Assembly (NCBI GenBank): GCA_963828165.1
Contig: CAWHDR010000001.1
Span: forward strand, 1,184,001 to 1,248,000
Length of the DNA: 64,000 nt
Source of the DNA: an uncultured Chloroflexia bacterium
GTDB lineage: Bacteria > Chloroflexota > Limnocylindria > Limnocylindrales > CSP1-4
Direction of reading: 5' to 3'
The position numbers and the translations under genes were made by a program. Position 1 is the first letter of the stretch; the number at the start of each line of letters is the position of its first letter. This document shows positions 9,079-25,852 of this stretch, in pieces. Under the pieces are notes generated by a model, which ran no database searches, was not told the DNA's origin, and saw only the letters and a program-made list of their open reading frames with translations.

Positions 9079-10301
9079 TGGACGACATCCAGCCAGGACT
9101 GCGCCGTGATCCGCCGACCGACCTGAGCGACGTCGGCGAGGACGCCGCGCTCCTGGATCGCATCCGTGTTGAGATCCGCGCAACCGGCCCGATGCCCTTT
9201 GCACGGTTCATGGAGCTCGCGCTGTACGCCCCCGAAGGCGGCTACTACCGAGCCGCCGCGGCTCGGCCCGGACGCAACGGCGACTTCATCACCGCACCCG
9301 AGCTGCATCCGATCTTCGGCCAGACGCTCTCGAGCGGGATCGAGGAGATCTGGAGGCGCCTCGGCGAGCCGAACCCATTCATGCTCCGTGAACACGGTGC
9401 CGGGACCGGCGCGCTCGGCCTGGCCATCCTGAACGAGCTCGACCGCGTCGGGTCGCCATTGCTCGAAGCGATCCGTTACGCACCGATCGAGGTCGAAGCG
9501 GATCGCATCGGGACGCTCGAGTCGCGTTTCGCGGAGGCCGGTCGGGGCGGCGTGCTCGCCGCGCCGGGCGAGACCGGCCACGTCGGCATCGTCGTCGCGA
9601 ACGAGGTGCTCGACGCCCTGCCCGTCCATCGCGTTCGTCGTCGCGGCGAGGCGCTGCGCGAAGTCGCCGTGGACGTGGATCGGGACGATGCCCTCGTGGA
9701 GGTCGAGATCGATCCGTCCACGCCCGCCCTCACGGAGCGCCTGGCGAGCGAGGCGATCGAGCTGGCCGATGGGCAGACGGCGGAGATCTGCCTCGCGCTC
9801 GACGCCTGGATCGCCGAGGCCGCGGCTTCGATCGCTCGGGGCGTGCTCCTGCTGATCGACTACGGCGCGCCGGCCGCCGATCTGTACCACCCCGTCCGCC
9901 GGCGCGACGGCACCCTGCGCGCCTACGTCCGTCACCAGGTCCACGACGACCCGTACGTGCACGTCGGCCGCCAGGACCTCACGGCCCACGTCGACGTGAC
10001 GGCGGTGGAACATGCGGCCCACGCCGCGGGTCTCACGACGATCGGGATCACGACCCAGGCCGAGGCGCTCATGGGCCTCGGCATCGAGGCGCGCCTGCAG
10101 GCGATCCAGGCGGATCCGGCCACGACCTTCGAGGACTACAGCCTGGTCAGATCCGCCCTCATGCGGCTGCTGGACCCGGCGGCGATGGGACGGTTCCAGG
10201 TCATGGCGTTCGGCCGGGACTGGCCCGACGGCGGCGGCGGCGAGGCGCCGCTCGGACTCTTCGCCTACCGCCTCCCGGCCCGTCCGTTTCTTCGCCGCTG
10301 A
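9075..10301 (+). CDS. SAM-dependent methyltransferase, MidA/NDUFAF7 family
   Basis: GPMPFARFMELALY..GGYY, GDFITAPEL, EHGAGTG, ANEVLDALPV, LIDYG, GRQDLTAHVD, MGRFQV. Confidence 0.92.
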   Translation: MMDDIQPGLRRDPPTDLSDVGEDAALLDRIRVEIRATGPMPFARFMELALYAPEGGYYRAAAARPGRNGDFITAPELHPIFGQTLSSGIEEIWRRLGEPNPFMLREHGAGTGALGLAILNELDRVGSPLLEAIRYAPIEVEADRIGTLESRFAEAGRGGVLAAPGETGHVGIVVANEVLDALPVHRVRRRGEALREVAVDVDRDDALVEVEIDPSTPALTERLASEAIELADGQTAEICLALDAWIAEAAASIARGVLLLIDYGAPAADLYHPVRRRDGTLRAYVRHQVHDDPYVHVGRQDLTAHVDVTAVEHAAHAAGLTTIGITTQAEALMGLGIEARLQAIQADPATTFEDYSLVRSALMRLLDPAAMGRFQVMAFGRDWPDGGGGEAPLGLFAYRLPARPFLRR

Positions 10302-10583: not shown

Positions 10584-10690
10584 TGTGCATGGCGTGAGTG
10601 GCAACTCCTGCCGCCCCCTGCCCGCCGCCTCGACGGATCGCTGGATCCGATCGGCGCGGATCGGAACACGCGTCGCTCCAAGGAGTTCGC

Positions 10691-11047
10691 TTGACCGGGA
10701 TCTGGTACGTCATCGGGTTCGCCTTCGCGGGCGTGTCCTTCGTGTTCCTGACGATCGCCGCCGCGTGGCTCGTGTCCCACCGCAACCGCGGCGACGTGCA
10801 CAAGGGCCTGCCCTACGAATCCGGGATCGACACGTACGGCGACACCCATGGCCGCTTCGGCCTGTCGTTCTACATCTACGCCCTGCTGTTCGTCGCGTTC
10901 GATATCGAAGTCATCTTCATCTACCTGTGGGCGATCGCCTTCGACTCGCTGCTGCTGGGCGGCCTGGTCAGCATGCTGATCTTCGTGGGCATCCTCCTGC
11001 TCGGCCTGGCTTACGCCTGGCGCAAGGGGGCGATGTCATGGCGGTGA
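10691..11047 (+). CDS. nuoA: NADH-quinone oxidoreductase subunit A
   Basis: [26 protein letters not shown]; TTG start after AAGGAG. Confidence 0.95.
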
Positions 11048-11805
11048 AGCCCAAGGGTGCCGATGGGGCCGAGAACCTCGGCACCGGTCCGGCGGACGTG
11101 ACGGCGATCGGCTCCGACGCCACGACTCAGCCCGGGCTGCCCGCGACCCGTCCGTCGGATGCGCTGACGGTCCCGATCGTCGTCCCCAACTCGCTCTGGC
11201 AGGCCGCCGATCCTGAGGCCTACGACGGCGGGCGCCCGACCGACATCACCCACCTCGCCGAGTTCGAGGCGAGCGGTCTCGGTCGCCGCGACGATGCCCG
11301 CTGGGGCGGCTTCCTCGAGGTCATCCCGACGAAGGCCGACTATGTGCTCGACCTCATCCGGATGAACAGCCTCTGGCCGCTGCTCTCGGGCCTGGCCTGT
11401 TGCGCGATCGAGATGATGTCGGCGGCGACCTCGAAGAACGACATGGACCGCTGGGGCATGTTCCCGTTCCGGGCAAGCCCACGCCAGGCCGACGTCCTGA
11501 TCGTGGCCGGCACGCTGACGACCAAGATGGCGGGGCCGCTCGTCCGCCTGTGGGAGCAGATGCCCGAGCCCAAGTGGTGCGTGGCGATGGGCGATTGCAC
11601 CTGTTCCGGGGGGCGCTACAAGCGGAGCTACTCCACGGTCGAGGGCATCGACCGGGTCATGCCGGTCGACGTCTACGTCCCGGGCTGTCCGCCCCGCCCG
11701 GAGGGCCTCATCTACGGGATGATGAAGCTCCAGCAGCTCGTCAAGGACCGCCGCGGGCACTGGCCCGACCGGGCGATCGGGCCGACCGTTCCCGAGCAGG
11801 TCTGA
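11038..11805 (+). CDS. nuoB: NADH-quinone oxidoreductase subunit B (long N-terminal extension)
   Basis: [42 protein letters not shown]. Confidence 0.96.
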
Positions 11806-11807
11806 CC

Positions 11808-12356
11808 ATGGACCGCGCGTTCAAGGCCCGCCTGGAGGCCCGCTTCGCCGACCAGCTGACCGGGCCGGTCCGGCAGCGCCACGACGAGACCGAGATCCGC
11901 ATCGGCCCCGGCGACGTGACCCAGGTGATCACCGCGCTCCACGACGAGCCCGCGTTCGGCTTCGAGTTCCTGGCCGATCTGGCGGGCGTCGACACCGGCG
12001 AGGTCATGCAGGTCGTCTACCACCTGTGGAGCGCGACGACACCGGACTGGCTGCGGGTCATCGCCGACGGCCTTTCGCGCGACGACCCCCGCGTCCCGTC
12101 GGTCACCTTCATGTGGAAGGGCGCCGAGTGGATGGAGCGCGAGGCCTACGACATGTTCGGCATCACGTTCGAAGGCAACCGCGACCTGCGGCGCATCTAC
12201 ATGCCGCCCGACTACCAGAGCTTCCCCTTGCGCAAGGACTTCTTCCTGCCCGACGACGCCGCCCGCTCGCCCGGGGCGGGTGTTCGACCCATGGAGCGAA
12301 CCCACGCGCCGCGCAACGCTCCGGCGACCGCGACGGTCCGCCGTGGCGATGCCTGA
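11808..12356 (+). CDS. nuoC: NADH-quinone oxidoreductase subunit C
   Basis: DLAGVD, VVYHL, W.EREAYDMFGI.F.G..DLRRI...FPLRKDF. Confidence 0.95.
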   Translation: MDRAFKARLEARFADQLTGPVRQRHDETEIRIGPGDVTQVITALHDEPAFGFEFLADLAGVDTGEVMQVVYHLWSATTPDWLRVIADGLSRDDPRVPSVTFMWKGAEWMEREAYDMFGITFEGNRDLRRIYMPPDYQSFPLRKDFFLPDDAARSPGAGVRPMERTHAPRNAPATATVRRGDA

Positions 12357-12383: not shown

Positions 12384-13634
12384 ATGACCGCGACGAAGCC
12401 CCGCCCCGACGCCCCCGCCCACGCCCAGCCGGACGCGCCGAGCGACGATCCGCGCGTCAGGCTCGACCGCGACCTCGGCGTGTTCGAGCCGGTCCCGCCC
12501 TACCCGCCCCGGACCGAGCGAGAGGCCGAGTTCTACACCCTCGGCGACGGCGAGATGTTCATCAACATGGGCCCCCAGCACCCGTCGACCCACGGCGTGC
12601 TCAGGGTCGTCCTCAAGCTCGACGGCGAGAAGGTCGTCGACCTCGATCCGGTCCTGGGCTACCTCCATCGCGGTGTCGAGAAGCTGTGCGAGAACGCCGA
12701 CTACCACCAGGCCATCTGCTACCTCGATCCGCTCGAGTACGTGAGCTCACTGTTCTGCGAGTGGCCCGGCGTCATGGCGTTCGAGAAGCTGATGGACGTC
12801 CAGGTCCCGCGCCGCGCCGAGTACATCCGCGTCCTGTCCGCGGAGCTCAACCGGGTGGCCAGCCACGCCCTGTTCCTCGGTTGGATGGCGCTCGACCTCG
12901 GCGGCCTCACGCCGATCCTGTGGTCGTTCATCGAGCGCGACGAGATCGTGGAGATGCTTGCCTCGCTGACCGGCCAGCGGATGCTGTTCAACTACTTCCG
13001 GATCGGCGGCGTGAACGGCGACCTCAACCACGAGTTCATGAGCCGGCTCGGCGACTGGATGAGCCACGCGACCGAGCAGATCGAGGCGGGCAACGCGCTC
13101 CTCAACGAGAACGAGATCTTCGTGCGCCGGATGCGCGGTCTCGGCACCATCGACTCGAAGGCGGCGCTGCGGATGGTGATGACCGGGCCGAACCTGCGCG
13201 CGACGGGCGTGCCGTTCGATGTCCGCCGGGCGCACCCGTACAGCATCTATCCGGAGCTGGATTTCGACATCCCGACGCGCACCGAGGGCGACTGCCTGGC
13301 GCGCTACCTGCTCCGGATGGACGAGGTCAAGCAGAGCCTGCGGATCATCGACCAGTGCCTGCACCAGATGCCGGACGGCCCGGTCATGGCCAAGCTTCCG
13401 CGTCTGCTCCGACCGCGTCCGGGACGCGCGTACGCCGGCATCGAGGGCCCACGCGGCCAGTACGCCGCATACGTCGTGAGCGACGGCACCGACCAGCCCT
13501 TCCGCATGCGGATCCACGACCCCTCGTTCATCCACCTGCAGGCGGTGGGGGTCATGACCCCGGGTCACTTGATCGCCGACACGATGGCGGTGATGGCGTC
13601 CCTCGACCCGATCATGGGCGGCGTCGACAAGTGA
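12384..13634 (+). CDS. nuoD: NADH-quinone oxidoreductase subunit D
   Basis: NMGPQHPSTHGVLR, GYLHRGVEK, ELNRVASH, EGPRG; no NiFe-binding CxxC motifs. Confidence 0.96.
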   Translation: MTATKPRPDAPAHAQPDAPSDDPRVRLDRDLGVFEPVPPYPPRTEREAEFYTLGDGEMFINMGPQHPSTHGVLRVVLKLDGEKVVDLDPVLGYLHRGVEKLCENADYHQAICYLDPLEYVSSLFCEWPGVMAFEKLMDVQVPRRAEYIRVLSAELNRVASHALFLGWMALDLGGLTPILWSFIERDEIVEMLASLTGQRMLFNYFRIGGVNGDLNHEFMSRLGDWMSHATEQIEAGNALLNENEIFVRRMRGLGTIDSKAALRMVMTGPNLRATGVPFDVRRAHPYSIYPELDFDIPTRTEGDCLARYLLRMDEVKQSLRIIDQCLHQMPDGPVMAKLPRLLRPRPGRAYAGIEGPRGQYAAYVVSDGTDQPFRMRIHDPSFIHLQAVGVMTPGHLIADTMAVMASLDPIMGGVDK

Positions 13635-13789: not shown

Positions 13790-15130
13790 ATGACGGTCGT
13801 CGGGAGGTCTTGGGGCAGGCTGACCCTGCCCGGCAAGATCGTGTTCACGGTCGTGCCCTTGTTGCTGCTTGCGACCGTTGCATTGGTCGCGGTCATCGTG
13901 CTGTTTGGCGAGCCGATCCTCGACATCCTCGTCGCGAACCTGCCGATCGTCCGTTTCGTGGTGGCAGTGACGATCGTCCTGCTGATGACGATCCCGACCG
14001 CGTTCCTGATCATCTACATGGAGATGAAGATCATCGCCCTGATGAATCTTCGGATCGGGCCGGATCGGGTGGGTCCGTTCGGATCCCTGCTGTCGGTGGT
14101 CCACGGGCTCAAGGTCCTCATGAAGGAGGATTTCACCCCCACGGGCGCCGACCCCATCGTGTTCACGTGGGCCCCGGTCGTCGTCTACCTCGCGAGCGTG
14201 ATGACGCTGCTCGTGATCCCGTTCGCGCCGGGGCTGTACGGGCAGGACCTGAACCTGGGGCTGCTCTACTTCTTCGCGATCGGCGGGCTGTCCGTGGTCG
14301 GGCTGCTGATGGCCGGCTGGGCGAGCTACAACAAGTACTCGCTCCTCGGCGGCCTGCGCGCGGCAGCCCAGGTCATCAGCTACGAGATCCCGCTGGTGCT
14401 GTCGGTCGTCGGGCTGATCCTGTTGGCCGACACGATGAGCGTGAACCAGATCGCGGAGAACCAGGCGGGCTGGTTCACCGACTGGTACATCTTCCGCCAA
14501 CCGCTCGGGGCGCTGATCTTCTTCATCGCCGCGACCGCCGAGGCGAACCGCACCCCGTTCGACCTCACGGAGGCCGACTCCGAGATCGTCGCGGGCTTCG
14601 CGACGGAGTACTCGGGGATGCGCTTCGGCTTCTTCTTCTTCGCCGAGTACGTGAACGTATTCATCGTCTCGGCGCTGTTCGTCACGTTGTTCCTTGGCGG
14701 CTGGAATGCCCCGTTCCCCTGGCCGTGGCCGGTGGAGCTGTCGCTGGACCCGGCCGGACTCGGCATCGGCCTGCTGCTGCTGGCCGGGATCGTCCCGGTC
14801 GTCCTGACGCTGCTCTTCGCCGCGCCGTTCTGGATCGCGAGCTCGCGCATCAAGTGGTGGCAGGCCCTGCTCGCCGGCTTCGTGCTGGCGAACCTGTTCA
14901 TCGTTGCGATGCTTGGTGCGTGGGCGTACATCGGGCTCGACTGGGTCGCCGGTATCCTCTGGTTCATGCTCAAGACGTACACGCTGGTGTTCACCTTCGT
15001 GTGGATGCGCGGCACGCTCCCGCGCGTCCGCATCGACCAGCTGATGGACTTCGCCTGGAAGTGGCTGCTCCCGGCATCCCTCCTGAACCTGTTCGTGACC
15101 GCGGCGGCCATCGTCGTCGTGGGCCGGTGA
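13790..15130 (+). CDS. nuoH: NADH-quinone oxidoreductase subunit H (with extra TM segments)
   Basis: R.GP.RVGPFG, GWASYNKYSLLGGLRAAAQVISYE, NRTPFDL.EADSEIVAGF.TEYSG, RGTLPR.RIDQLM. Confidence 0.95.
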   Translation: MTVVGRSWGRLTLPGKIVFTVVPLLLLATVALVAVIVLFGEPILDILVANLPIVRFVVAVTIVLLMTIPTAFLIIYMEMKIIALMNLRIGPDRVGPFGSLLSVVHGLKVLMKEDFTPTGADPIVFTWAPVVVYLASVMTLLVIPFAPGLYGQDLNLGLLYFFAIGGLSVVGLLMAGWASYNKYSLLGGLRAAAQVISYEIPLVLSVVGLILLADTMSVNQIAENQAGWFTDWYIFRQPLGALIFFIAATAEANRTPFDLTEADSEIVAGFATEYSGMRFGFFFFAEYVNVFIVSALFVTLFLGGWNAPFPWPWPVELSLDPAGLGIGLLLLAGIVPVVLTLLFAAPFWIASSRIKWWQALLAGFVLANLFIVAMLGAWAYIGLDWVAGILWFMLKTYTLVFTFVWMRGTLPRVRIDQLMDFAWKWLLPASLLNLFVTAAAIVVVGR

Positions 15131-15140
15131 GGGGCATCGC

Positions 15141-15824
15141 ATGAGCTTCATCCCAGGCCTCGGCATCGCGAAGGGCATGGCGCTGACCCTGCGCCGCTTC
15201 TTCGAGCCCAAGGTCACGATCATGTACCCGGAGGTGCGGGCCGACGTCCCGCACAAGTTCCGCGGCCGGCTGCAGCTGCTCTACGACGAGTGGGGCACGC
15301 TCAAGTGCGAGACCTGCTTCCAGTGCGCCCAGGCGTGCCCGATCGAATGCATCGACATGGGCGGCATCGATACCCGCGGCCGATACCACGTCCACTGGGG
15401 CGCGGCCGAGACGTACGGGGAGCGGCGCGAGGAATCCGCGCTGCGCCGGTCGGGACGGACGGTGCCGGATCCGGCCTACCTCCCGTTCGCGCCGGTCGAC
15501 CTCGCCCAGGTCGACGCGATCCTCGAAGAACACGACCACGACCCCGCACGGATGCTCGACATCCTCGAGGCGACCCAGACCGCCTACGGCTACCTGCCCG
15601 TCGCCGCGCTCAAGCGGATCAGCCACGAGACGGGAGCCTGGTACGCGATGATCTACGGCACGGCCAGCTTCTACGCGCACCTGCGCTTCGAGCCCGCGGC
15701 GTCCGCCGAGCAGGCGAAGGCCGTGGACGAGCACCGGCCGGCCGAATTCGAGCTATCTCGCGGCGCTCGATGCCGCGCTGGACGGCGGCGGGCGCCCCGG
15801 CGCTCCGGCGCGGGCCTGACATGA
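15141..15824 (+). CDS. Fusion of the NuoI N-terminal half (one CxxCxxCxxxCP) with the NuoE N-terminal helical domain; no [2Fe-2S] domain
   Basis: KGMALTLRRFF...VTIMYPE...FRGR...KCETCFQCAQACP is NuoI-like; LDILEATQTAYGYLP..ALKRIS..TG....IYGTASFY is NuoE-like. A probable extra T near 15747 would give the true stop at 15819. Confidence 0.85.
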   Translation: MSFIPGLGIAKGMALTLRRFFEPKVTIMYPEVRADVPHKFRGRLQLLYDEWGTLKCETCFQCAQACPIECIDMGGIDTRGRYHVHWGAAETYGERREESALRRSGRTVPDPAYLPFAPVDLAQVDAILEEHDHDPARMLDILEATQTAYGYLPVAALKRISHETGAWYAMIYGTASFYAHLRFEPAASAEQAKAVDEHRPAEFELSRGARCRAGRRRAPRRSGAGLT

Positions 15825-17119
15825 CCGAGATCCTGAAGACGCCGGCCAAATGGCCGACGATCCTCCTCGGGCGGGCGCATGCCAAGGACCCGACGGACCT
15901 CGATGCCGCCGTCGCAGCGGGCGCATTCACCGGCCTGCGCCGCGCCATCCGGGACCTGGGCCCGACCGCGATCATCGCGACGGTGGCCGAGTCCGGGCTG
16001 CGCGGGCGGGGCGGGGCGGGCTATCCGGCCGGCGAGAAATGGCGGACCGCGGCGACCACGGATGCCGACCGGCGCTACGTGGTGGCGAACGGCTATGGCG
16101 CTGACCCTGCCTCGCACACGGACCGCTCGCTGATGCTCCTGGACCCGTTCTCGGTGATCGAAGGCACGGCCATCGCCGCGTACGCGATCGGCGCGAACGA
16201 GGCCTTCATCGCCGTGCGATCGGAGGACGCCGACGTCATCGCAAGCGTGTCGGCGGCCATCGGCGCCGCGACGGACGCCGGCTTCGTGGGGGAGGACGTC
16301 TCGGGTTCCGGGCACGACATCCACATCACGGTCCGCCCCGTCCAGGGCGCATACATGCTCGGCGAGGAGACCGTCCTGCTCAAGGCGCTCGAGGGCAAGC
16401 GCGGCCAGCCCGAGCAACGACCACCGCACCCGGCCGAACGCGGGCTCTTCGACCGCCCGACGCTCGTCCACAACGTCCAGACTCTCGCGGCCGTGCCGTG
16501 GATCGTGCGCGAAGGCGCCACGGCGTTCCGCGCGACCGGGACGACCGGCAGCCCTGGGACGGTGCTCGTCCAGGTGCGCACGCCCGGCGGCAAGAACGGA
16601 GTCGCGGAAGTCCCGCTCGGCACGCCGCTGCGCGACGTCCTGGGCCTCGGCGGCAAGCTGCCGGCCGGTCGGTCGATGAAAGCGGTGCTGGTGGGCGGCC
16701 CATCCGGCGGGCTCTTGCCAGCGGACGCGCTCGACACCCCCTACGACTTCGAGCCCTTGCGGGCGGTCGGTGCGCACCTTGGATCAGGCTCTGTCGTGGT
16801 CGTCGACGATCGGACCGACCTGCTCGAGCTCGTCGGCGTCCTGACGCGGTTCTGTTCGAACGAGGCCTGCGGCAAGTCCATCCCGTGCCGGATCGGCGTC
16901 AAGCGCCTGGCCGAGATCGTCGCGCGGCGCGAGGAAGGCCTGCTGCGGCCGGTCGACATGGAGCTCGCGACGGACCTCGCGACCGACATCGTGGCCTCCG
17001 CCCTGTGCGACCACGAGCGGCTGGCCACCCTCCCCCTGACCAGCGGGATGCGATACTTCGGGTCCGACTTCGACCCTGCCCGCCGTCCCCAGCCGGCGTC
17101 GACCGAGGCCCCCCGATGA
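15821..17119 (+). CDS. nuoF: NuoF-like flavoprotein with degenerate NADH/FMN-site and N3 motifs
   Basis: SGLRGRGGAGYP.G.KW, GAYMLGEET.L..LEGKRGQP, VGGPSGG, GSG.VVV, EACGKSIPCRIG...ALC. Confidence 0.88.
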   Translation: MTEILKTPAKWPTILLGRAHAKDPTDLDAAVAAGAFTGLRRAIRDLGPTAIIATVAESGLRGRGGAGYPAGEKWRTAATTDADRRYVVANGYGADPASHTDRSLMLLDPFSVIEGTAIAAYAIGANEAFIAVRSEDADVIASVSAAIGAATDAGFVGEDVSGSGHDIHITVRPVQGAYMLGEETVLLKALEGKRGQPEQRPPHPAERGLFDRPTLVHNVQTLAAVPWIVREGATAFRATGTTGSPGTVLVQVRTPGGKNGVAEVPLGTPLRDVLGLGGKLPAGRSMKAVLVGGPSGGLLPADALDTPYDFEPLRAVGAHLGSGSVVVVDDRTDLLELVGVLTRFCSNEACGKSIPCRIGVKRLAEIVARREEGLLRPVDMELATDLATDIVASALCDHERLATLPLTSGMRYFGSDFDPARRPQPASTEAPR

Positions 17120-19782
17120 CCGACACCCTGGCCCGTCCACCCGGCCGCACCGCCACGACCGCACCGTCGGCTCCCGAGTCGTCCGCGGAGTCGCTCGCCG
17201 ATCGCCTGCTGGACACGCAGTCGCCGCAGCGCCCCCAGTCGACGCCGCGGATCCGCATCGAGGTCGACGGCCGCGTCGTCGAGGGCTTCGAGGGTCAGAC
17301 GATCCTCGAGGTCTGCCGCGACAACGGGATCGAGATCCCGACGCTGTGCTACGAACCCAAGCTGCCTGGCTTCGGTGCCTGCCGGATGTGCGTCGTCGAG
17401 GTCGAGGGCGAAGAGCACCCGCCGATCTCCTGCTCGCGCACCTGCGAGCCGGAGATGAAGGTCCAGACCCAGACCGAAACGGTCCGCCGCCTGCGCCGGA
17501 CGAACCTCGAGCTGATCTTCAGCGATCACAACGCGTACTGCCTGCCGCCATGCCAGAACAAGTGCCCGAGCCACATCGACATCCCGGGCTTCCTCAAGGC
17601 CAACGCCGAGGGCAACTTCCGCGAGTCGGCCCGCATCTTCAAGCGGACGATCCCGTTCCCATCCGTCCTCGGGCGGGTCTGCCCGGCACCGTGCGAGGAG
17701 CACTGCCGGCGCGACGAGGTCGATGAGGCGATCGCCATCCGCGATACGCACCGCTACGCCGGCGACCAGGTCCTCAAGGCGCAGCTGGACGACGGGATCG
17801 ATCCGCCGGTCCCGTTCGAACAGCAGACGAAGTCCGGTCGCACGGCCGCGGTCATCGGTTCCGGACCGGCCGGCATGGCCGCCGCGTATTACCTGCTGAT
17901 CGCCGGCCACGACGTCACGGTCTTCGAGCGCGACCCGGCACCCGGCGGCATGCTCCGCTACGGCATCCCGCAGTACCGCCTGCCCAAGGTCGAGGTCCTC
18001 GAGGCCGAGTACGAGTCGGTCATGCGCCTCGGCGCGAAGATGGTCACCAACGCCGGGCTCGGGCGCGATTTCACGCTCGACGACCTGACGATGCAGGGCT
18101 TCGACTCGGTCGTCGTGGCCATCGGCTGCTACGACACGAACAAGCTCGGGATCCCGAACGAGGACGCCGACGGCGTCATCGATGGGCTCGAGTACCTGCG
18201 CACGGCGACGCTCGGCCTGCCCTACCCCGACCACGTCGGCAAGCGCGTCGTGGTCATCGGCGGCGGCTTCACCTCGATGGACTGCTCGCGGACGTCGGTC
18301 CGCCAGGGCGCCGGCGAGGTCACGCTCGTGTACCGCCGCGACATGAAGGACATGCCGGCGGCCGACGAGGTCCACGAGGCCATCGAGGAAGGCGTGACCG
18401 CGATCTTCCAGGCCGGACCGACGCGGGTCATCACGGACGAGAAGACCGGCAAGGTCACGGGCGTCGAGTTCATCCGCATGCAGCTCGGCGAGCCGGACGC
18501 GTCCGGCCGGCGCCGGCCGGAGCCAGCGCCCGGGACGGAGTTCACGATCCCGTGCGACCGGGTGTTGTTGGCCATCGGCCAGGGACCAGAGCTCGATTGG
18601 CTGGCCCAGCCCGGCAACGAGGGCCCCGAGGCCACCAAGCAGCGACGTCTCAAGGCCGACTCCGTGACGTTCTCGACGGGCCGTCCCGGCGTCTTCGGCA
18701 CCGGCGACGTGCGGATCGGCGCGGCGACGGTGGTCGAGGCGATCGCCGAAGGCCGGCGCGCTGCCTATGCCGTGGACGCCTTCCTGAAGGGCATGGATCT
18801 CGACGCGATCCGGACGCGCCAGACGCTGGCCGAGCCCCAGCCGGAGTTCCTGTCGATCGTGCCGTTCACGGCCGAGATGAAGGAATCTCGCTACCGGTTG
18901 CAGGCCCTGCCTGCCGAGATGCGCAACCGGAGCTACATCGAGTACGAGCTGCCCTACACGCCCGAGGCGGCCGTGGCCGAGTCGACCCGCTGCCTGCAGT
19001 GCACGTGCGAGGCCATCGGCTTCTGCGACCTGCGACGGCTGGGGATCGAATACGGCACCACGCTCAAGACCCTGGAGCCGCAGAACCACCAGGGCGCGGG
19101 CTACCGGTCGGTGACGGAGAACCGGTTCACGGGCATCAACCACGACTACATCCGCGACGATTCGCACGCGTTCATCCTGCGCGAGCCCTCCCGCTGCATC
19201 GACTGCGGGCGGTGCGCGAATGTGTGCGCCGAGGTCGTCGGCGCCGCGTGCTACGACTTCATGCGCATCGGCTTCGACACGCTCGTCACGACGCCACTCG
19301 ACATGAGCCTCAACGACACCCCGTGCGTGTCCTGCGGGCGCTGCGCCGAGACGTGCCCGACCGGCGCCTTGATGCCGAAACCGCGGGTGCTCGAGAAGTA
19401 CGAAGTCGACGAGAGCCGCTGCATCCTGTGCGGGATCTGCGTCGATGCCTGCCCGTACGACGCACTGCGCGACGGCGCGGACTTCGAGCTCGCGCACACC
19501 GGCCGCGACGAGCCGAACATCGACCTCATGGCGCTCGCGGCGATCGACCGCGAGACCGAGGTCACGTACATCCGCCGCGAGCGCGACTGGGCGACGCGAG
19601 CGGCGGCCGAGGGCAGGATCATCGACCCGGGGCGGATGCTGCCGATGCTGCCACCCACGATCTCGGGCGTTCCGACGCCTGGCGCGATCGGCGCGGGCGG
19701 GAATGGACATGGGGGCAATGGACACGACCACGGCCACGATCACGGAGCGGTCGCGGCCCTCGGTCCGGGCGGGCACGAGTAG
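17116..19782 (+). CDS. Multidomain FeS flavoprotein: NuoG-type [2Fe-2S] + GltD/NfnB-type FAD/NAD(P)H domain + NuoG-type [4Fe-4S] + NuoI C-terminal half + His-rich tail
   Basis: IPTLCY...GACRMCVVEV...ISC; PCQNKCP...GRVCPAPCEEHC; GSGPAG; GGGFTSMD, YRR; RCIDCGRCANVC, CVSCGRCAETCPTGAL; YEVDESRCILCGICVDACPYDAL..GADFELA. Confidence 0.9.
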   Translation: MTDTLARPPGRTATTAPSAPESSAESLADRLLDTQSPQRPQSTPRIRIEVDGRVVEGFEGQTILEVCRDNGIEIPTLCYEPKLPGFGACRMCVVEVEGEEHPPISCSRTCEPEMKVQTQTETVRRLRRTNLELIFSDHNAYCLPPCQNKCPSHIDIPGFLKANAEGNFRESARIFKRTIPFPSVLGRVCPAPCEEHCRRDEVDEAIAIRDTHRYAGDQVLKAQLDDGIDPPVPFEQQTKSGRTAAVIGSGPAGMAAAYYLLIAGHDVTVFERDPAPGGMLRYGIPQYRLPKVEVLEAEYESVMRLGAKMVTNAGLGRDFTLDDLTMQGFDSVVVAIGCYDTNKLGIPNEDADGVIDGLEYLRTATLGLPYPDHVGKRVVVIGGGFTSMDCSRTSVRQGAGEVTLVYRRDMKDMPAADEVHEAIEEGVTAIFQAGPTRVITDEKTGKVTGVEFIRMQLGEPDASGRRRPEPAPGTEFTIPCDRVLLAIGQGPELDWLAQPGNEGPEATKQRRLKADSVTFSTGRPGVFGTGDVRIGAATVVEAIAEGRRAAYAVDAFLKGMDLDAIRTRQTLAEPQPEFLSIVPFTAEMKESRYRLQALPAEMRNRSYIEYELPYTPEAAVAESTRCLQCTCEAIGFCDLRRLGIEYGTTLKTLEPQNHQGAGYRSVTENRFTGINHDYIRDDSHAFILREPSRCIDCGRCANVCAEVVGAACYDFMRIGFDTLVTTPLDMSLNDTPCVSCGRCAETCPTGALMPKPRVLEKYEVDESRCILCGICVDACPYDALRDGADFELAHTGRDEPNIDLMALAAIDRETEVTYIRRERDWATRAAAEGRIIDPGRMLPMLPPTISGVPTPGAIGAGGNGHGGNGHDHGHDHGAVAALGPGGHE

Positions 19783-19790
19783 GCCGGACG

Positions 19791-20384
19791 GTGCTCGCGA
19801 AGCTCGTCCCGATCCTCATCGCGCTCATCGTCATGGGCGCCGTCCTCGGCATCGCGGCCCTCATGCTGATCGTGCTTGGCCAGGACTGGGACGACGCACT
19901 CTTGTGGATCCTGTCCGCCGTGATGCTGGGCTCGGGGCTCCTGGTCGTGACGATGCGCGACATCATCCGCTGCGGCCTGGCGATGATCGTGTGCTTCCTC
20001 GCCCTGGCCGGGATCTACGTCCTGATGGGGGCGCCTTTGCTGGGGGCCGCCCAGGTCATCGTCTATATCGGCGCGATCAGCGTGCTGATCCTCTTCGCGA
20101 TCATGCTGACCCAGACCAAGGACGCCCCGAGCCGGCTGGTCTTCCAGACCCAGGCCGTGCCGGCGGCCATCGCGGCCGTCGTGGTCGCCATCCTCATCGC
20201 GCTGGCCGTGGCAGCGACCGACTGGGGTGAGCTGACCGAGCGTGTGCGCCTCGCCACGAGCAGGATGTCGGAGGTCCTGTTCGAGCAGTTCGTGTTCCCG
20301 TTCGAGATCGTCAGCGTCCTGCTGCTGGCGGCCGTGATCGGCGGCGTGTTCCTGGCCAAGCGCGAACCGGGCGGCCCGCCGTGA
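19791..20384 (+). CDS. nuoJ: NADH-quinone oxidoreductase subunit J
   Basis: [37 protein letters not shown]; GTG start inferred. Confidence 0.93.
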
Positions 20385-20698
20385 GCGACAGCCTCGATGC
20401 GTACCTGATCCTGTCGGGGATCCTCTTCGCCATCGGTTCTTTCGGCTTCCTGGCCCGGCGTAACGCGATCAGCATGCTGATGTCGATCGAGCTGATGCTC
20501 AACGCCGTCAACCTCGCCATCGTGGCCTTTGCCGCGTTCAGTCCGGCCCTCGACGCACAGGCCCAGGGCTCGGTCATCGCCCTGATGGTCATGGCGGTAG
20601 CCGCCGCCGAGGCCACAGTCGGGCTGGCCATCGTCATCGCGATCTACCGGAACAAGAAGACCCCTCTCGTTGACGAATACGACGCGATGTCCCGGTGA
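20381..20698 (+). CDS. nuoK: NADH-quinone oxidoreductase subunit K
   Basis: [29 protein letters not shown]. Confidence 0.96.
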
Positions 20699-22701
20699 GC
20701 CTCGAGTCGCTGATCCCGCTGCTTGTCATCCTGCCCATCGCAGGCTTCGCGGTCACGGCGCTCGTCGGGCGACGGCTGGGCAAGCAAGCCCACTGGGTCC
20801 CGGTGCTCGTGATCCTCGGCGCGTGGGCCATCGCGATGGCCCTGGCCTTCCAGGTGCTGACGGGCGCCGCGCCGCTGCTTGAGGGATCCGAAGAGGCACA
20901 CGGGTACGCCCTTCACTGGTTCACCTGGATCCCGGCCGGCGACTTCGTCGTGGAGGTCGGCTTCGTCGTTGACTCGCTGACGGCGTGCCTGCTGATCGTG
21001 GTCACGACGATCGGGCTGCTCGTCCACATCTATTCGGTCGGCTACATGAGCCACGACCCGGGGTACTGGCGCTTCTTCGCCTACCTGAACCTGTTCATGT
21101 TCTCGATGCTGCTGCTGGTCCTCGCGGATTCTTGGCTCGTGGTGTTCGTGGCGTGGGAGCTGGTCGGCCTGTGCAGCTACCTGCTCATCGGCTTCTGGTA
21201 CCGCAAGCGCTCGGCCGCGCTGGCCGCCAAGAAGGCGTTCATCGTCAACCGCGTCGGCGACATCGGTTTCGCGCTCGGGATCATGGCCATCTGGGTCAAC
21301 ACCGGCGCCGTGGGCGAGGCGACGCTGAACATCCGCGAGTCCATCCATACGATGCTCGAGGCGGGCGATGCCAACCCGATCCCGCTCTTCGCGACCGCGT
21401 TGCTCGTGTTCGCCGGAGCCATGGGCAAGAGCGCCCAGTTCCCGCTCCACGTCTGGCTCCCCGACGCGATGGAGGGCCCGACCCCGGTGTCGGCGCTCAT
21501 CCACGCGGCCACCATGGTCAACGCCGGCGTGTACCTGGTCGCCCGGGCGAACGAGCTGTTCGCCTCCGCCCCCGACGCGATGGTCATCGTCGCCGCGATC
21601 GGCATCTTCACGGCCATCCTCGCGGCGACGATCGCCATGACCCAGACGGACATCAAGCGGGTCCTCGCCTATTCCACGCTGAGCCAGCTCGGCTACATGT
21701 TCGCGGCGCTCGGGGTGGGCGCGTTCACCGCGGCGATCTTCCACCTCATGACCCACGGCTTCTTCAAGGGCCTGCTGTTCCTGGGTTCCGGTTCGGTCAT
21801 CCACGCCGTCCACGAAGAGCAGGACATGCGCCGGATGGGGGGCCTCGCCTCGAAGATCCCCATCACCTACGCGACGATGTTCATCGGCTCCATCGCGATC
21901 GCCGGCATCCCGCCGCTGGCAGGCTTCTTCAGCAAGGACGAGATCCTGGGTGAGGCCTTCAAGTTCGGCTTCTACTGGGTCTGGGGGATCGGCCTGTTCG
22001 TCGCGTTCCTGACGGCCTTCTACATGTTCCGGCTGATGGGTTTGACGTTCTGGGGCGCGTTCCGAGGTCCCAAGGAGCTCTGGGACCGCATCCACGAGTC
22101 ACCGCGGGTGATGACCGTGCCGCTCATCCTGCTGGCGATCCCGTCGATCTTCCTGGGCATGGTGCTCGGCCTCCCGCTCGGCGACAGCACCCTCCATCAC
22201 TGGCTGGAACCGGTCTTCCACCATTCGACCGAGGAACTGCTCCACCTCCCGCACGAGCCGTACGCGCTGTTCGGCATCGACGGCGGGCTGATCCTTGCGA
22301 GTGTCACGGTCGCCGCGATCGGCGTGGCCCTGGCCTGGCGCCTGTTCGGAGCCGACGTCGGCGCGCTGCGCCTGCCGGCCCGACCCGAGCGGGTGCGCGA
22401 GATCAGCTCACGTCCCGGCCTCTCGTTCCTCTATCGGGCATCGCTCAACAAGTGGTGGTTTGACGAGCTCTACCACTTGCTGTTCATCGTTATCGGTGGT
22501 CGGATCGCGGCGGCGATGTGGTGGTTCGATCGGGAGGTCGTCGACGGGACCGTGAACGATGTCGGCCGGGCCACGGTCGGTGCGGGGCGCGGGCTGCGGC
22601 GCGTGCAGACCGGTCGAGTCCAGAACTACGCGCTCGGGATCGCCCTCGGCCTGATCGTCATGGCTGGTTCCTACCTGATCCTCGTGGGGAACCCGCGATG
22701 A
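20695..22701 (+). CDS. nuoL: NADH-quinone oxidoreductase subunit L
   Basis: [54 protein letters not shown]. Confidence 0.97.
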
Positions 22702-24359
22702 CGCTCAACGCGTTCCCGATCCTGTCGCTGGTCACGTTCCTGCCGTTGGTCGGGGCCTTGGTGGTGGCGATCCTGCCCTCCAGGTTCACCCGACCGGTCG
22801 CGCTCGGTTTCGCGCTCGCGGCGTGGGTGGTCTCGCTGCTCCTGCTGATCGGCTACCTGCCCGGGCGGCTGGGCACGCAGTTCCTGTACGTCGAGGTGTA
22901 CGACTGGATCCCGATCTTCGGCATCCAGTACAAGCTCGGCGTCGATGGGTTATCGGCCGCCCTGGTCGTGCTCACGACCACGCTGACCTGGATCTCCATC
23001 CTGGCGAGCTGGAAGCCGATCCAGACCCGGATCAAGGAATACATGATCAGCTTCCTGGTCCTCGAGGTGGGGATGATCGGCGTCTTCCTCGCCCTGGACA
23101 TGTTCCTGTTCTACATCTTCTGGGAGATCGTCCTGGTCCCGATGTACCTGATCATCGGCATCTGGGGCGGCGCGAACCGGATCTACGCGACGATCAAGTT
23201 CGTCCTGTACACGCTCGTCGGGTCGCTCCTGATGCTCGTGGCCATCCTGGCGACGGCATTCGCCTACCAGGCGGCCAACGGCGGCTCGTGGGTCGGCGCC
23301 TTCGACTTTGAGACGTTGCGCACGTTTGCCAGCGGCGGCGGCTTCTCGCCGGCCCTCCAGGTGGGTGCCTTCCTGGCCTTCTTCCTGGCGTTCGCGATCA
23401 AGGTCCCCATGTTCCCGTTCCACACGTGGCTGCCCGACGCGCATACCGAGGCGCCGACCGCGGGCTCGGTGATCCTGGCCGCGATCATGCTCAAGCTCGG
23501 CGCGTACGGGTTGATCCGCTTCGCGGTGCCGCTGTTCCCGGACGCGGCCCTGACGTTCGCGCCGGTCGTGATCGTGCTCTCGCTGATCGCGATCATCTAC
23601 GGGGCGATCGTGGCGCTCGTCCAACCGGACCTCAAACGGCTCGTGGCCTTCTCATCGGTCAGCCACATGGGCTTCGTGACGCTGGGCCTGTTCGTCTTCA
23701 CGGAGCAGGGCGTCCAGGGCGCGATCCTCCAGATGATCAACCACGGACTCATCACGGGTGGCCTGTTCCTCCTGGTCGGCGTCATCTACGAGCGGACCCA
23801 CGACCGGACGATCGCGAAGATGGGCGGGCTCGCGGCGCGGATGCCAGTGTGGGCCGCCGTGTTCGGGTTCTTCGCCTTCGCGTCTGGCGGGCTGCCGGGC
23901 CTGTCCGGCTTCGTCGGGGAGTTCCTCACGCTGGTCGGGACGTTCGACGTCAGCCCGCTGGGCGCGACGATCGCGGCCTTCGTGATGGTTCTCGCGGCGG
24001 GGTACCTGCTGTACATGTACGGGCGCATCGTCTTTGGCGAGGTCTCCGGGTTCATCGCAGGCCTTGGGAATCACCTGGCGGACATGACCCCGATCGAAAC
24101 GCTGACCCTTGTGCCGCTGGCGACGCTGATCGTCGTGTTCGGCTTGCAGCCGGGGCTGCTGCTCGACCTCGTGCGGGGGACGGTGCGTGAGACGCTGGGT
24201 GCCGCGTCGACGGGCGCGCCCCTGTCGGTCGGCCCAGAAGTCGTGCTGATCGGTGTCGCCATCGTCGTGCTGGCCGTGATCGCCCGGATCGCGTTCGCCC
24301 TGCGACCGGGGCGGTCGGAGCCCGCAGGGACCGTGGCCGCCGAAGGCGGCGCCCATTGA
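22698..24359 (+). CDS. nuoM: NADH-quinone oxidoreductase subunit M
   Basis: FYIFWE..LVPMY, KVPMFPFHTWLPDAHTEAPT, LKRLVAFSSVSHMG, GLPGLSGFVGE. Confidence 0.96.
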   Translation: MTLNAFPILSLVTFLPLVGALVVAILPSRFTRPVALGFALAAWVVSLLLLIGYLPGRLGTQFLYVEVYDWIPIFGIQYKLGVDGLSAALVVLTTTLTWISILASWKPIQTRIKEYMISFLVLEVGMIGVFLALDMFLFYIFWEIVLVPMYLIIGIWGGANRIYATIKFVLYTLVGSLLMLVAILATAFAYQAANGGSWVGAFDFETLRTFASGGGFSPALQVGAFLAFFLAFAIKVPMFPFHTWLPDAHTEAPTAGSVILAAIMLKLGAYGLIRFAVPLFPDAALTFAPVVIVLSLIAIIYGAIVALVQPDLKRLVAFSSVSHMGFVTLGLFVFTEQGVQGAILQMINHGLITGGLFLLVGVIYERTHDRTIAKMGGLAARMPVWAAVFGFFAFASGGLPGLSGFVGEFLTLVGTFDVSPLGATIAAFVMVLAAGYLLYMYGRIVFGEVSGFIAGLGNHLADMTPIETLTLVPLATLIVVFGLQPGLLLDLVRGTVRETLGAASTGAPLSVGPEVVLIGVAIVVLAVIARIAFALRPGRSEPAGTVAAEGGAH

Positions 24360-25852
24360 TCGCCCAGGACTTCGTCACGATCTCCCCGCTTATCGCGGCC
24401 GTGCTGACGGCCGCCGCGGTCCTCGTCGCGGACCTGATCCGGCCCGGCCGTTCCGGCCCCTCGGTCGCGACCGCGCTCATCGGACTCGCCCTGACGGCGC
24501 TGATCACGCTGTCCGTCGGCAGCACGGAGGCCACGGCCTTCGGCGGCTCGTACACGGTCGACCCGCTGACCACGTTCCTCGACATCCTGTTCATCGCCGT
24601 GATCGTGATGACGATCCTGTTCGCCCCCGATTACCTCCTGCCACGCGGGCTGCCGGTGGCGGAGTTCGCGACCGTGCTGATCTTCGCGATGAGCGGCGCG
24701 ATGCTGCTCGCCGGCTCCAGCGACCTGCTGCTGCTCTTCCTCGGCCTCGAGCTCATGGTCCTCCCGGGCTACCTTCTCGCCGGCTTTCACAAGACCGATG
24801 GCTTTTCGACCGAGGGCGCCATCAAGTACTTCCTGCTCGGCTCGTTCAGCTCGGCGATCTTCCTGTTCGGGCTGGCCTTCGTGTGGGGTTTGACCGGGAC
24901 GACGCTCGTGGCCGGTCCGGACGGCATCGCGGCCAGGCTGGCGGCGATCGTCGCGGGTGAGGCGCCGCTGTCCGCGGGCCTGGCGATGGGCCTCGCGTTC
25001 ATGACGACGGGTGTCGCATTCAAGATCGCGGCCGTGCCGTTCCACTACTGGACACCAGACGCGTACCAGGGCTCGCCGACACCGGTCACCGGCTATCTCT
25101 CGGTCGGCCCCAAGATCGGCGCGTTTGCCCTGATCCTGCGGCTGTTCGTGGAAGCGCTTGGGCCGCTTGCCGACGTGTGGCTCCCGGTCGTCATCATCCT
25201 GGCCGCGTTCACGATGACGCTGGGCAACCTCGTGGCCCTCACGCAGGACAACGTCAAGCGGATGCTTGGCTACAGCTCCATCGCGCACACCGGCTACATG
25301 CTCGTCGGGCTCGCCGCGTACGCGGCCGGCGAGCTCCAGGGCCTGTCGGGCCTGCTCTTCTATCTCGCCGCCTACGCATTCATGAACCTCGGGGCGTTCG
25401 CCGTGATCGCCGCGCTCCAGAAGCGCGCCGGGGTGACCTCTCAGCTCGACACGTTCGCCGGGCTCGGCCGGCGGGAGCCGCTCCTGACCGTGCTCATGAC
25501 GCTGTTCCTGCTGTCGCTCATCGGGATCCCGCCGACCGCCGGGTTCTTCGCCAAGTACGAGATCATCGTGGCCGCGGTGCAGGCCGGCGGGGCGCTGACG
25601 TGGCTCGCGGTCCTGGTGGTCCTCAATGCCGCAGTGGCCGCCTTCTACTACCTGCGGGTCGTCGTCTACATGTTCATGCGCGATCCCGCGACCGACGCAC
25701 CGGCGCTCCGCCACGGCGCGCTGATGTGGGGTGGCCTCGCGGCCGCGACCGTCCTGACGATCCTCCTGGGGCTGTTCCCGACGGCGCTGCTCGGGATCGT
25801 CGACCAGGCTGCGCAGGCGCTCCTGGGCACGGCGGGCATCGCGGGGACCTGA
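24356..25852 (+). CDS. nuoN: NADH-quinone oxidoreductase subunit N
   Basis: EGAIKYFLLG, FKIAAVPFH.WTPD.YQGSPT, KRMLGYSSIAH.GY, GIPPTAGF.AK. Confidence 0.96.
   Translation: MIAQDFVTISPLIAAVLTAAAVLVADLIRPGRSGPSVATALIGLALTALITLSVGSTEATAFGGSYTVDPLTTFLDILFIAVIVMTILFAPDYLLPRGLPVAEFATVLIFAMSGAMLLAGSSDLLLLFLGLELMVLPGYLLAGFHKTDGFSTEGAIKYFLLGSFSSAIFLFGLAFVWGLTGTTLVAGPDGIAARLAAIVAGEAPLSAGLAMGLAFMTTGVAFKIAAVPFHYWTPDAYQGSPTPVTGYLSVGPKIGAFALILRLFVEALGPLADVWLPVVIILAAFTMTLGNLVALTQDNVKRMLGYSSIAHTGYMLVGLAAYAAGELQGLSGLLFYLAAYAFMNLGAFAVIAALQKRAGVTSQLDTFAGLGRREPLLTVLMTLFLLSLIGIPPTAGFFAKYEIIVAAVQAGGALTWLAVLVVLNAAVAAFYYLRVVVYMFMRDPATDAPALRHGALMWGGLAAATVLTILLGLFPTALLGIVDQAAQALLGTAGIAGT

Follow-up and report, generated by a model that had tools for sequence, protein, structure and literature searches.

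The locus described here lies on contig CAWHDR010000001.1 of an uncultured Chloroflexota bacterium from soil (assembly GCA_963828165.1; Limnocylindrales, CSP1-4), within a 64,000-nt window, the whole stretch of DNA that was analysed, with a G+C content of about 70%. The plus strand of the window carries a complete nuo operon, encoding respiratory complex I, in the order nuoA-B-C-D-H-[I'E']-F'-[G'GltD-I'']-J-K-L-M-N. Complex I is among the best-studied bioenergetic enzymes, and its 14 core subunits, with a single entry for NADH (reduced nicotinamide adenine dinucleotide) at flavin mononucleotide (FMN), are regarded as nearly universal. The three genes between nuoH and nuoJ form an unusual cassette. 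The first (15141-15824, plus strand; all coordinates are window positions) encodes a 227-residue NuoI'-E' fusion, P0002, recognised from positions 1-63 of the NuoI profile TIGR01971 and from alignments to the N-domains of NuoE-like subunits. The second (15821-17119, plus strand) encodes a 432-residue NuoF-like flavoprotein consisting of the FMN/NAD(H) core only (Pfam Complex1_51K and NADH_4Fe-4S). The third (17116-19782, plus strand) encodes P0001, an 888-residue iron-sulfur flavoprotein of the StnC/NfnA type that ends in the C-terminal half of NuoI, as identified with Pfam, TIGR01971 and structure-sequence alignments. No separate nuoE, nuoG or nuoI is found among the operon genes between 10598 and 25852.

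The reading frame of P0001 is open, and its ATG overlaps the stop codon of the upstream nuoF-like gene (ATGA). Its best-scoring relatives of known structure are 9bov_A (E = 1e-160, residues 46-779 aligned to 4-699 of 1178), the NfnA chain 9n5u_A (E = 1.5e-140) and Sporomusa-type StnC from S. ovata, 8oh5_C (E = 7e-137, residues 45-781 aligned to 3-701 of 1172). Standalone NfnB (4ylf_B, E = 2.7e-78) and GltD (2vdc_G, E = 1.9e-66) match an inserted domain only. Ten loci were fetched for comparison, and the counts out of ten given below refer to 10-sequence family alignments.

The chain of P0001 can be followed domain by domain. Residues 45-120 (17248-17475, plus strand) form a [2Fe-2S] domain equivalent to A1 or N1b (Pfam Fer2_4, E = 5.8e-20), with C78, C89, C92 and C106 invariant (10/10). 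The NuoG His-cluster model NADH-G_4Fe-4S_3 then matches with its first 17 of 40 positions, at residues 127-143 (...SDHNAYC), and there, inside the His-cluster (N5/A3) motif of the NuoG-type region, sits a GltD/NfnL-like module (residues ~142-560; 17539-18795, plus strand; Fer4_20 at 142-221, Pyr_redox_2 at 245-546). This module is predicted to hold two [4Fe-4S] sites, A6 and A7, a site for flavin adenine dinucleotide (FAD; GSGPAG, 248-253) and a site of the type that binds NADPH, the phosphorylated form of NADH (GGGFTSMD, 382-389, with YRR, 406-408); G248, G250, G382-384 and Y406-R407-R408 are invariant (10/10). The NuoG-type region resumes at residues ~561-752 (18796-19371, plus strand; Fer4_Nqo3 at 687-752), collinear with NfnA/StnC to residues ~699-701 of those proteins. 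It comprises C626, C629, C631 and C637 within CLQCTCEAIGFC (626-637), followed by a ferredoxin-like 2x[4Fe-4S] domain starting its two motifs at C694 and C737, the equivalents of A2/A4; all these cysteines are invariant, and dicluster Fer4 Pfam models match residues 737-783. The last folded part, residues ~757-860 (19384-19695, plus strand), is the C-terminal half of NuoI, with the second CxxCxxCxxxCP motif (C769-P780) and the C-terminal NuoI helices; C769, C772, C775, C779 and P780 are likewise invariant (10/10).

Every Fe-S ligand, the FAD and NADPH-type glycine motifs and the YRR motif are thus kept in 10 of 10 homologs of P0001 that share 44-75% identity. Such invariance in diverged homologs, together with thousands of relatives in metagenomes, argues that the architecture is not due to chance. 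General family models describe the protein poorly: TIGR01973 (NuoG) covers profile positions 1-105 and 117-216 only, the best NCBIfam model, PRK12814, scores 547 bits against a cut-off of 916, and no GltD-, NuoG- or NuoI-type model reached its cut-off in the NCBIfam scan of P0001. The initial annotation had described a NuoG-type [2Fe-2S] domain running up to DHNAYC and a full GltD module inserted there, as the Pfam matches and the readable motifs bear out. It was also right that a molybdopterin-like C-domain is absent from P0001: the chain ends early, about 190 residues beyond the ferredoxin motifs, and the alignments to StnC and NfnA stop near residues 699-701 of these two. The NuoG-type Fe-S region does resume with CTCEAIGFC, as it had stated, followed by three rather than two CxxCxxCxxxC(P) motifs (C694, C737 and C769), the third of which belongs to NuoI.

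Some sources label such proteins GltD or formate dehydrogenase subunit. We rejected plain GltD, given that GltD and NfnB are free-standing proteins of ~450-490 residues acting with GltB or NfnA, that the domain is here internal to an 888-residue protein, that GltD-type models stay below cut-off and that no GltB is encoded in the operon; the formate dehydrogenase label was rejected on membership tests. P0001 ends in a Gly/His-rich low-complexity tail, GNGHGGNGHDHGHDHG (residues ~846-888; 19651-19782), which is missing from the aligned homologs of families f2, f3, f4, f9, f28 and f46. One homolog of 1075 residues, P0113, ends in a NuoJ domain (PF00499), either a G'I''-NuoJ fusion or a stop read-through in gene calling.

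The nuoI gene is split around the input module, and each half is fused to one end of that module. In a genome-wide search TIGR01971 gave no match above its family cut-off; it matched in two pieces, positions 1-63 in the reading frame at 15141-15824 (E = 2e-13) and positions 71-116 at the end of the one at 17116-19782 (E = 4.8e-11). On Nqo9 of T. thermophilus, residues 9-71 of P0002 align to 6-68 and residues 745-856 of P0001 to 74-177, the latter stretch also matching 8qby_I (E = 1.4e-12). The two pieces align end to end and are therefore collinear, complementary halves of one protein, cut in the loop between the two cluster motifs. Residues 1-75 of P0002 make up the N-terminal half with the first CxxCxxCxxxCP motif, in which all 10 aligned sequences, at 26-65% identity, share C56, C59, C62, C66 and P67. 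Within P0001 the C694 and C737 motifs pair with each other as in StnC/NfnA, leaving the C769 motif partnerless on its own chain; its partner is the C56-P67 motif of P0002. A canonical NuoI is one protein of ~160-180 residues with two CxxCxxCxxxCP motifs, and here these motifs lie on two proteins.

A structure prediction for the two NuoI halves gave an interface score of 0.38, against 0.00 for the best control; the runs had at least 76% of contacts in common, and the predicted local distance difference test score (pLDDT) was at least 63 for the partner. The inputs were custom 10-row alignments. The mark applied is reached by 58 of 80 solved complexes and by 2 of 110 mismatched pairs, and at scores of 0.60 or below it is reached by 7 of the 80 as well as by both mismatches. 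NuoI being a solved fold, the pass may reflect likeness to known structures and not binding, and the prediction lends weak support to a pairing of the halves.

The remainder of P0002 derives from NuoE. Residues 118-187 align to the N-domains of the NuoE-like subunits 9bov_C and 8oh5_A, delimiting a helical N-domain at ~114-188, and P0002 matches only positions 2-64 of the 145 in the NuoE profile. The thioredoxin-like [2Fe-2S] domain is absent from P0002, which has no cluster cysteine after residue 66. The NuoE cluster ligands are missing in 10 of 10 family members, in ways that differ between families: the domain is deleted in f1, the second cysteine pair is lost in f2 and f3, and a short basic tail stands in its place in f4, f9, f28 and f46.

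The NuoF-like protein has its best matches of known structure in the cores of NfnB, StnB and HydB (E = 5e-93 to 3.5e-89), followed by complex I NuoF at 1.5e-81 and weaker. Its 432 residues cover ~117-521 of the 602 in NfnB and 101-515 of the 584 in StnB, and both profile and structure-sequence matches place it without the thioredoxin-like N-domain and without the ferredoxin-type C-domain that carries B3/B4. All 10 NuoF-like sequences retain the GLRGRGGxG loop, the GEET motif and the RPP(H/Y)PA stretch, and three of the four N3 cysteines occur in every sequence compared. A conserved H-x(5-6)-C-P-x-G-x-C stretch ends the NuoF-like proteins of f3, f4, f9, f28 and f46 and is missing in f1 and f2; judged by its residues, it looks like a small metal site. 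We also considered, and rejected, an in-frame I'E'-F' fusion, for only 1 of 79 loci lacks a stop codon between the two genes; the long open frames around them are due to the high G+C content.

The genes on either side of the cassette, all on the plus strand, are those of an otherwise complete complex I, with the membrane subunits A, H and J-N encoded together and the Q-module subunits B, C and D present. The hydrophobic reading frame at 10598-11047, whose start is uncertain (GTG 10598 or TTG 10691), was identified as nuoA by its position before nuoB and by homologs in the same place at four of the other loci (L023, L030, L041 and L042; tblastn E = 2e-22 to 2e-58). It is followed by nuoB, which encodes the N2 cluster subunit with a long N-terminal extension (11038-11805; Oxidored_q6, E = 7e-27) and whose N2 cysteine motifs, including GCPPRPE, are readable in the sequence. 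Next come nuoC (11808-12356; Complex1_30kDa, E = 3.8e-37), nuoD (12384-13634; Complex1_49kDa, E = 1.4e-86) and nuoH (13790-15130; NADHdh, E = 1.4e-105). The NuoD profile matches in two pieces (1-172 and 199-271), as it does in the variant-type NuoD of five other genomes. Downstream of the cassette lie nuoJ (19791-20384, start probably GTG 19791; Oxidored_q3, E = 2.3e-31), nuoK (20381-20698; Oxidored_q2, E = 2.7e-26), nuoL (20695-22701; Proton_antipo_M, _N and _C), nuoM (22698-24359; Proton_antipo_M, E = 4.6e-79) and nuoN (24356-25852; Proton_antipo_M, E = 1.3e-67).

Directly upstream of nuoA is a gene of the Methyltransf_28 family (9075-10301, plus strand; Pfam E = 4.2e-51), to which we take NDUFAF7, an assembly factor of mitochondrial complex I, to belong. 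Homologs lie upstream of nuoA at one f2 locus (L030) and just downstream of the cassette at one f4 locus (L024), and the protein may be a complex I maturation factor tied to the variant. An ordinary trehalose-phosphatase/HAD gene on the opposite strand (25876-26772, minus strand), right after nuoN, marks the end of the operon.

This operon is the only complex I of the source genome, which is 87.7% complete. There is one NuoD locus genome-wide (the sole PF00346 locus), one NuoL/M/N set besides a single weak and unrelated antiporter-like match, and no other NuoI or NuoG above cut-off. A second NuoF gene, with genes resembling the NuoG N-terminus and the Fdh/NuoG C-terminal part, occurs outside the window at C1:1706975-1715814 (L001, L003, L004 and L035); this cluster, at 1.708-1.714 megabases, probably encodes a soluble dehydrogenase. 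Its Fdh-like match contains one in-frame TGA, which could encode selenocysteine in an enzyme of the formate dehydrogenase type or else mark a break.

The variant is widespread. Of 7998 scored metagenome candidates, 7957 are relatives of P0001 at E ≤ 0.001; the best 120 show 83-98% identity over lengths of 863-1075 residues, and the named sources among them are Candidatus Limnocylindrales or Chloroflexota metagenome-assembled genomes (MAGs). Where MAG titles give another phylum, as some do at ~80% identity, noise in labelling or binning seems to be the cause. A relative is encoded by at least 577 of at least 596 stretches that match the pattern. When 1.84 billion representatives were searched with a profile, 6122 proteins reached E ≤ 0.001, 1283 reached 1e-10 and 50 reached 1e-30; by hand count, one matched stretch runs from the NuoI half into the NuoE half in 38 of the best 150. 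At 79 of 80 named Limnocylindrales/Chloroflexota MAG loci nuoH stands directly before the I'-E' gene.

We followed P0002 through a sample of 401 Chloroflexota genomes, grouped in families (f numbers); the source genome, G000, is a member of f1. Any match to P0002 is found in 373 of them, mostly to ordinary NuoI over residues ~4-80 only. In 62, the source genome included, a single match runs across the NuoI and NuoE halves alike: all 23 further f1 genomes, all 4 of f2, 16 of 16 in f3, both of f4, 11 of 11 in f28, 4 of 5 in f9 and the one of f46. For these families the count among genomes flagged as unpublished was 0 of 6. The f2 and f3 loci show the same full operon as the window. At the f4 locus the order is B-D-I'E'-F-G'I'', with K-L-M-N upstream on the same contig, and in f9, f28 and f46 a four-gene cluster B-I'E'-F-G'I'' is found; two f28 genomes carry an A-C-D-H cluster, without B and I, elsewhere. 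A canonical-type NuoD/NuoB locus is present as well in 4 of 5 genomes searched, those of f9, f28 and f46, the fifth being from f4. Limnocylindria have this layout as their sole complex I, and in other classes it occurs, scattered, as a second one. Its occurrence beside a canonical NuoD/NuoB argues that the variant does something that the canonical enzyme does not. One further locus, L028 (G066:C36, 12454-14031, minus strand), holds a second NuoB with an I'E'-like partner and has no NuoF-like or StnC-like gene beside it; the neighbours of the pair encode a DUF1440 protein, a Na+/H+ exchanger and a CLC channel.

Taken together, the cassette is best explained as a rebuilt electron-input module of complex I: a non-bifurcating NAD(P)H:quinone proton pump in which a cassette derived from Stn/NfnABC is carried inside nuoI. 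From the sequence evidence we estimate the probability of this reading at roughly 65%. The domain architecture, the splitting of NuoI, the order and conservation of the genes and the status of the operon as sole complex I of the genome are firm results, from which the cofactors, the use of NADPH and NADH, the A4-to-N6 route, quinone reduction and proton pumping are predicted. P0001 replaces NuoG, as the initial annotation had proposed, for the genome holds no other NuoG; its union with the membrane-arm genes is borne out by its place in a full nuo operon. The likeness to StnABC that had been suggested holds insofar as the subunits most resemble StnA/StnB/StnC, NfnABC and HydC/HydB; the trio is nevertheless incomplete, the StnA [2Fe-2S] domain, the StnB end domains and the Fdh-like domain being gone. 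The picture of a transhydrogenase-like module grafted onto the pumping arm needs a similar correction: the module does appear to be transhydrogenase-derived and does stand in the nuo operon, yet it is encoded inside a split nuoI, with the halves fused at both of its ends. The initial annotation was thus right in kind, with its Stn-like module and a likely entry for NADPH, but it missed the key feature, the divided NuoI that clamps the module to the Q-module.

The mechanism that we propose starts from an 11-subunit-type core (A-B-C-D-H-I-J-K-L-M-N) carrying the three-gene cassette inside nuoI. Together the NuoI halves supply the eight cysteines of N6a and N6b, so that the module would be tied covalently to the Q-module on both sides. 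NADPH would reduce the FAD of the GltD-like domain, from which electrons would pass through A7, A6 and A3 to A2; NADPH use and quinone reduction are suggested by homology and by the conserved YRR and GxGxxG motifs. In the passages we draw on, NADPH is shown to act at the FAD of the homologous domain in Stn and in Csac Nfn (PMC10482914, PMC11829005). NADH would probably reduce the FMN of the NuoF-like subunit, with entry through B1/N3 and the [2Fe-2S] cluster A1. Both streams would leave A2 through A4 into the split NuoI, and reach N2 in NuoB and then menaquinone, while the membrane arm would pump protons.

The same passages trace the path in Stn and Csac Nfn as FAD-A7-A6-A3-A2-A1 to a flavobicluster [B1-FMN-C1], with A2-A4-A5 as a dead-end branch within the Fdh-like domain (PMC10482914, PMC11829005). 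The A2-A4 branch, a dead end in NfnABC, would here be the outlet that leads to N6a/N6b. Since the GltD insert lies inside the His-cluster motif, it may occupy the canonical exit from N5 to N6a. Bifurcation requires C1, B3 and B4 according to the passage at hand in PMC11829005; as C1, B3/B4 and the thioredoxin-like domains are absent here, neither bifurcation nor the use of ferredoxin would be expected.

Several observations weigh against this scheme. The N3/B1 motif of the NuoF-like protein reads CGKSIPC, with serine for the second cysteine. Among 79 Limnocylindrales loci that position is threonine in 46, serine in 28, unreadable in 5 and cysteine in none; elsewhere it is threonine in f2, alanine in f3 and cysteine in f4, f9, f28 and f46. 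The NADE(G/S)(D/E)PG loop is NGYGADPA here and is changed across the whole NuoF-like family. With both motifs altered, NADH entry at FMN may itself be altered or lost. Electrons may also leave by the canonical exit, through the His-ligated cluster N5/A3. The AlphaFold2 model of P0001 (10-row alignment) has a mean pLDDT of 54.5, with residues 569-888 all below 50; it is unusable beyond residue 569, which leaves the A4-to-N6 route without inter-cluster geometry behind it. To this we add the faintness of the predicted interface between the NuoI halves. A gene for PntB, the beta subunit of the proton-translocating transhydrogenase, is present at G000:C1:898221-899597, so the cell can balance NADPH against NADH without this complex; with PntB present, we also dropped the absence of a transhydrogenase as an argument for NADPH disposal. 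All RNA runs found contained less than 0.2 of the sampled words. Contigs of four soil or ice RNA libraries reach 28-30 of 30 bins at a likeness of at least 88%, and they are short and mostly from relatives; two of the libraries, X15 and X17, appear to be duplicate entries of a single data set. DNA may occur in RNA libraries, and these contigs indicate the presence of related sequence, not transcription. Finally, the function is predicted from sequence, in an organism that is uncultured.

The altered NuoF-like motifs also lead to the first alternative, a complex I fed by NADPH only, in which the NuoF-like subunit would be a structural relic and the FAD site of the GltD-like domain the sole entry. 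The loss of the second N3/B1 cysteine in f1, f2 and f3 (Ser/Thr/Ala), the change of the NADE loop throughout the family, the loss of the NuoE cluster and the retention of a canonical complex I for NADH in f9, f28 and f46 genomes all speak for it. A relic, however, would hardly remain so conserved in proteins that are only 32-51% identical: the three loops and motifs named above persist in every aligned NuoF-like sequence, three of the four N3 cysteines are universal, and f4, f9, f28 and f46 keep all four. We regard this alternative as unlikely, if worth keeping in mind.

The complex might instead work mainly in reverse, as the initial annotation had suggested for NADP+ reduction, or sideways, either as a quinol:NADP+ reductase driven by the proton-motive force or as an internal NADH-NADP+ transhydrogenase on a shared cluster chain. 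Complex I is reversible, and with two nicotinamide sites on one chain of clusters, NADH and NADP+ could in chemical terms exchange hydride. No feature of the sequence points to reverse flow, however, PntB is available for NADPH formation at the expense of the proton-motive force, and for the sole complex I in Limnocylindria forward respiration is the simpler main role; we consider this improbable. That the cassette encodes a soluble, bifurcating transhydrogenase of the Stn/NfnABC type, merely located in the nuo operon and standing outside the membrane complex, agrees with the best structural matches of all three proteins (subunits of Stn, Nfn-Bfu and Hyd) and can nonetheless be set aside as very improbable, since the module carries a NuoI half at either end, no further NuoI is encoded in the genome, and the BfuB thioredoxin-like domain, the Fdh-like tetramerisation domain, C1 and B3/B4 are absent, C1 and B3/B4 being required according to the Bfu papers in the part used here (PMC11829005).

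If the rebuilt-module reading is true, a core subunit, NuoI, has been cut in two and grips a different input module, one with two flavins, between its halves, which would be new, and NADPH would be coupled directly to proton pumping. The locus would also offer a natural experiment on how an input module docks to the Q-module, and hence on the evolution of complex I from an 11-subunit ancestor. The Limnocylindria, once named Ellin6529, belong to the most common soil bacteria that are still uncultured; with carriers so common in soil, the enzyme may matter for the energy conservation of soil communities. A more far-reaching scenario falls, in our judgement, a little short of an even bet. It holds that the N-module was invented independently a second time, when an 11-subunit ancestor took a transhydrogenase of the Stn/NfnABC type into nuoI, acquiring two flavin entries (FAD for NADPH, FMN for NADH) and the A2-A4 branch as the wire to N6a/N6b; the enzyme would then be the first NADPH-burning respiratory complex I, and the main proton pump of a very common soil and freshwater class.

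The comparison with known systems is made, for Nuo-Bfu, Stn, Csac Nfn and the mbx-like operons, with passages of the papers cited. StnABC and NfnABC have three subunits of the same kinds as the cassette, whose NuoF-like core is nearest to NfnB, StnB and HydB. P0001 resembles StnC and NfnA in the succession of a [2Fe-2S] domain, a GltD/NfnL insert at the same His-cluster point and a 2x[4Fe-4S] ferredoxin-like domain, and the YRR and FAD motifs are kept. The numbering of 9bov_A agrees with that of Csac NfnA in the passage used from PMC11829005 (C108, C147, C151 and K170); the Lys ligand of A7, K170, aligns with an invariant histidine, H212, of P0001. Unlike StnC and NfnA, P0001 has no Fdh-like domain (A5, tetramerisation) and carries the C-terminal half of NuoI in its place. 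Similarly, P0002 differs from BfuC/StnA in lacking cluster C1 and in being fused to the N-terminal half of NuoI, and the NuoF-like protein differs from BfuB/StnB in lacking the thioredoxin-like N-domain and the B3/B4 C-domain. In contrast to soluble Stn and Nfn, the genes stand within a nuo operon, so that the enzyme would be membrane-bound and bifurcation is not expected.

With the canonical 14-subunit complex I (T. thermophilus Nqo1-14) the operon shares a complete membrane arm and Q-module, all elements of the NuoI fold, a NuoF-type flavoprotein and a NuoG-type region with [2Fe-2S], His-cluster and ferredoxin parts. It differs in that the input module lies inside nuoI and not between nuoD and nuoH, with NuoI on two polypeptides. 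The NuoE part has no N1a cluster, N3 has three cysteines in this lineage, and NuoG has a GltD flavoprotein insert and a second ferredoxin cluster in addition to lacking the molybdopterin-like domain. Once the cassette is removed, the gene order A-B-C-D-H-I-J-K-L-M-N is identical to that of NUO11 operons, which together with cyanobacterial NDH-1 represent the 11-subunit complex I-like enzymes (PMC4758237). In those enzymes NuoI is intact and the operon lacks a NAD(P)H module, whereas here a two-flavin module lies in NuoI. The mbx-like operons of Thermotoga and of proteobacteria, in the same source (PMC4758237), likewise have a GltD-type NAD(P)H flavoprotein at the NuoI position; in those, NuoI is replaced and neither a NuoE/F nor a NuoG part is described, while here NuoI is kept as two halves, and the flavoprotein belongs to the StnC/NfnA type and is partnered by NuoF.

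In our search of the literature neither a split NuoI nor a Stn-type module in complex I came to light, although supplementary clade tables (e.g. those of PMC9304861) could hold such clusters, and no paper was found that joins Limnocylindria with respiratory NADH terms. A close parallel is the predicted Nuo-Bfu (Schut et al. 2022, PMC9304861), in which a Bfu-related module replaces NuoEFG in the middle of a nuo cluster. As presented in the part of that paper used here, Nuo-Bfu retains an entire BfuB with sites B2-B5, has the confurcation of NADH and ferredoxin as its proposed activity, and occurs in Deferribacteres, Proteobacteria, Planctomycetes and Nitrospirae (PMC9304861). The Limnocylindrales operon, by contrast, has no full BfuB, and neither a GltD domain nor a split NuoI is described for Nuo-Bfu in that part (PMC9304861). 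Altogether, the enzyme belongs to neither the complex I nor the Nfn-Bfu family as these are defined, because NuoI is not one protein, NuoE is clusterless, and the Fdh-like domain, C1, B3/B4 and A5 are absent; judged by its sequence, the cassette is a trimmed Stn/NfnABC (Nfn-Bfu) module.

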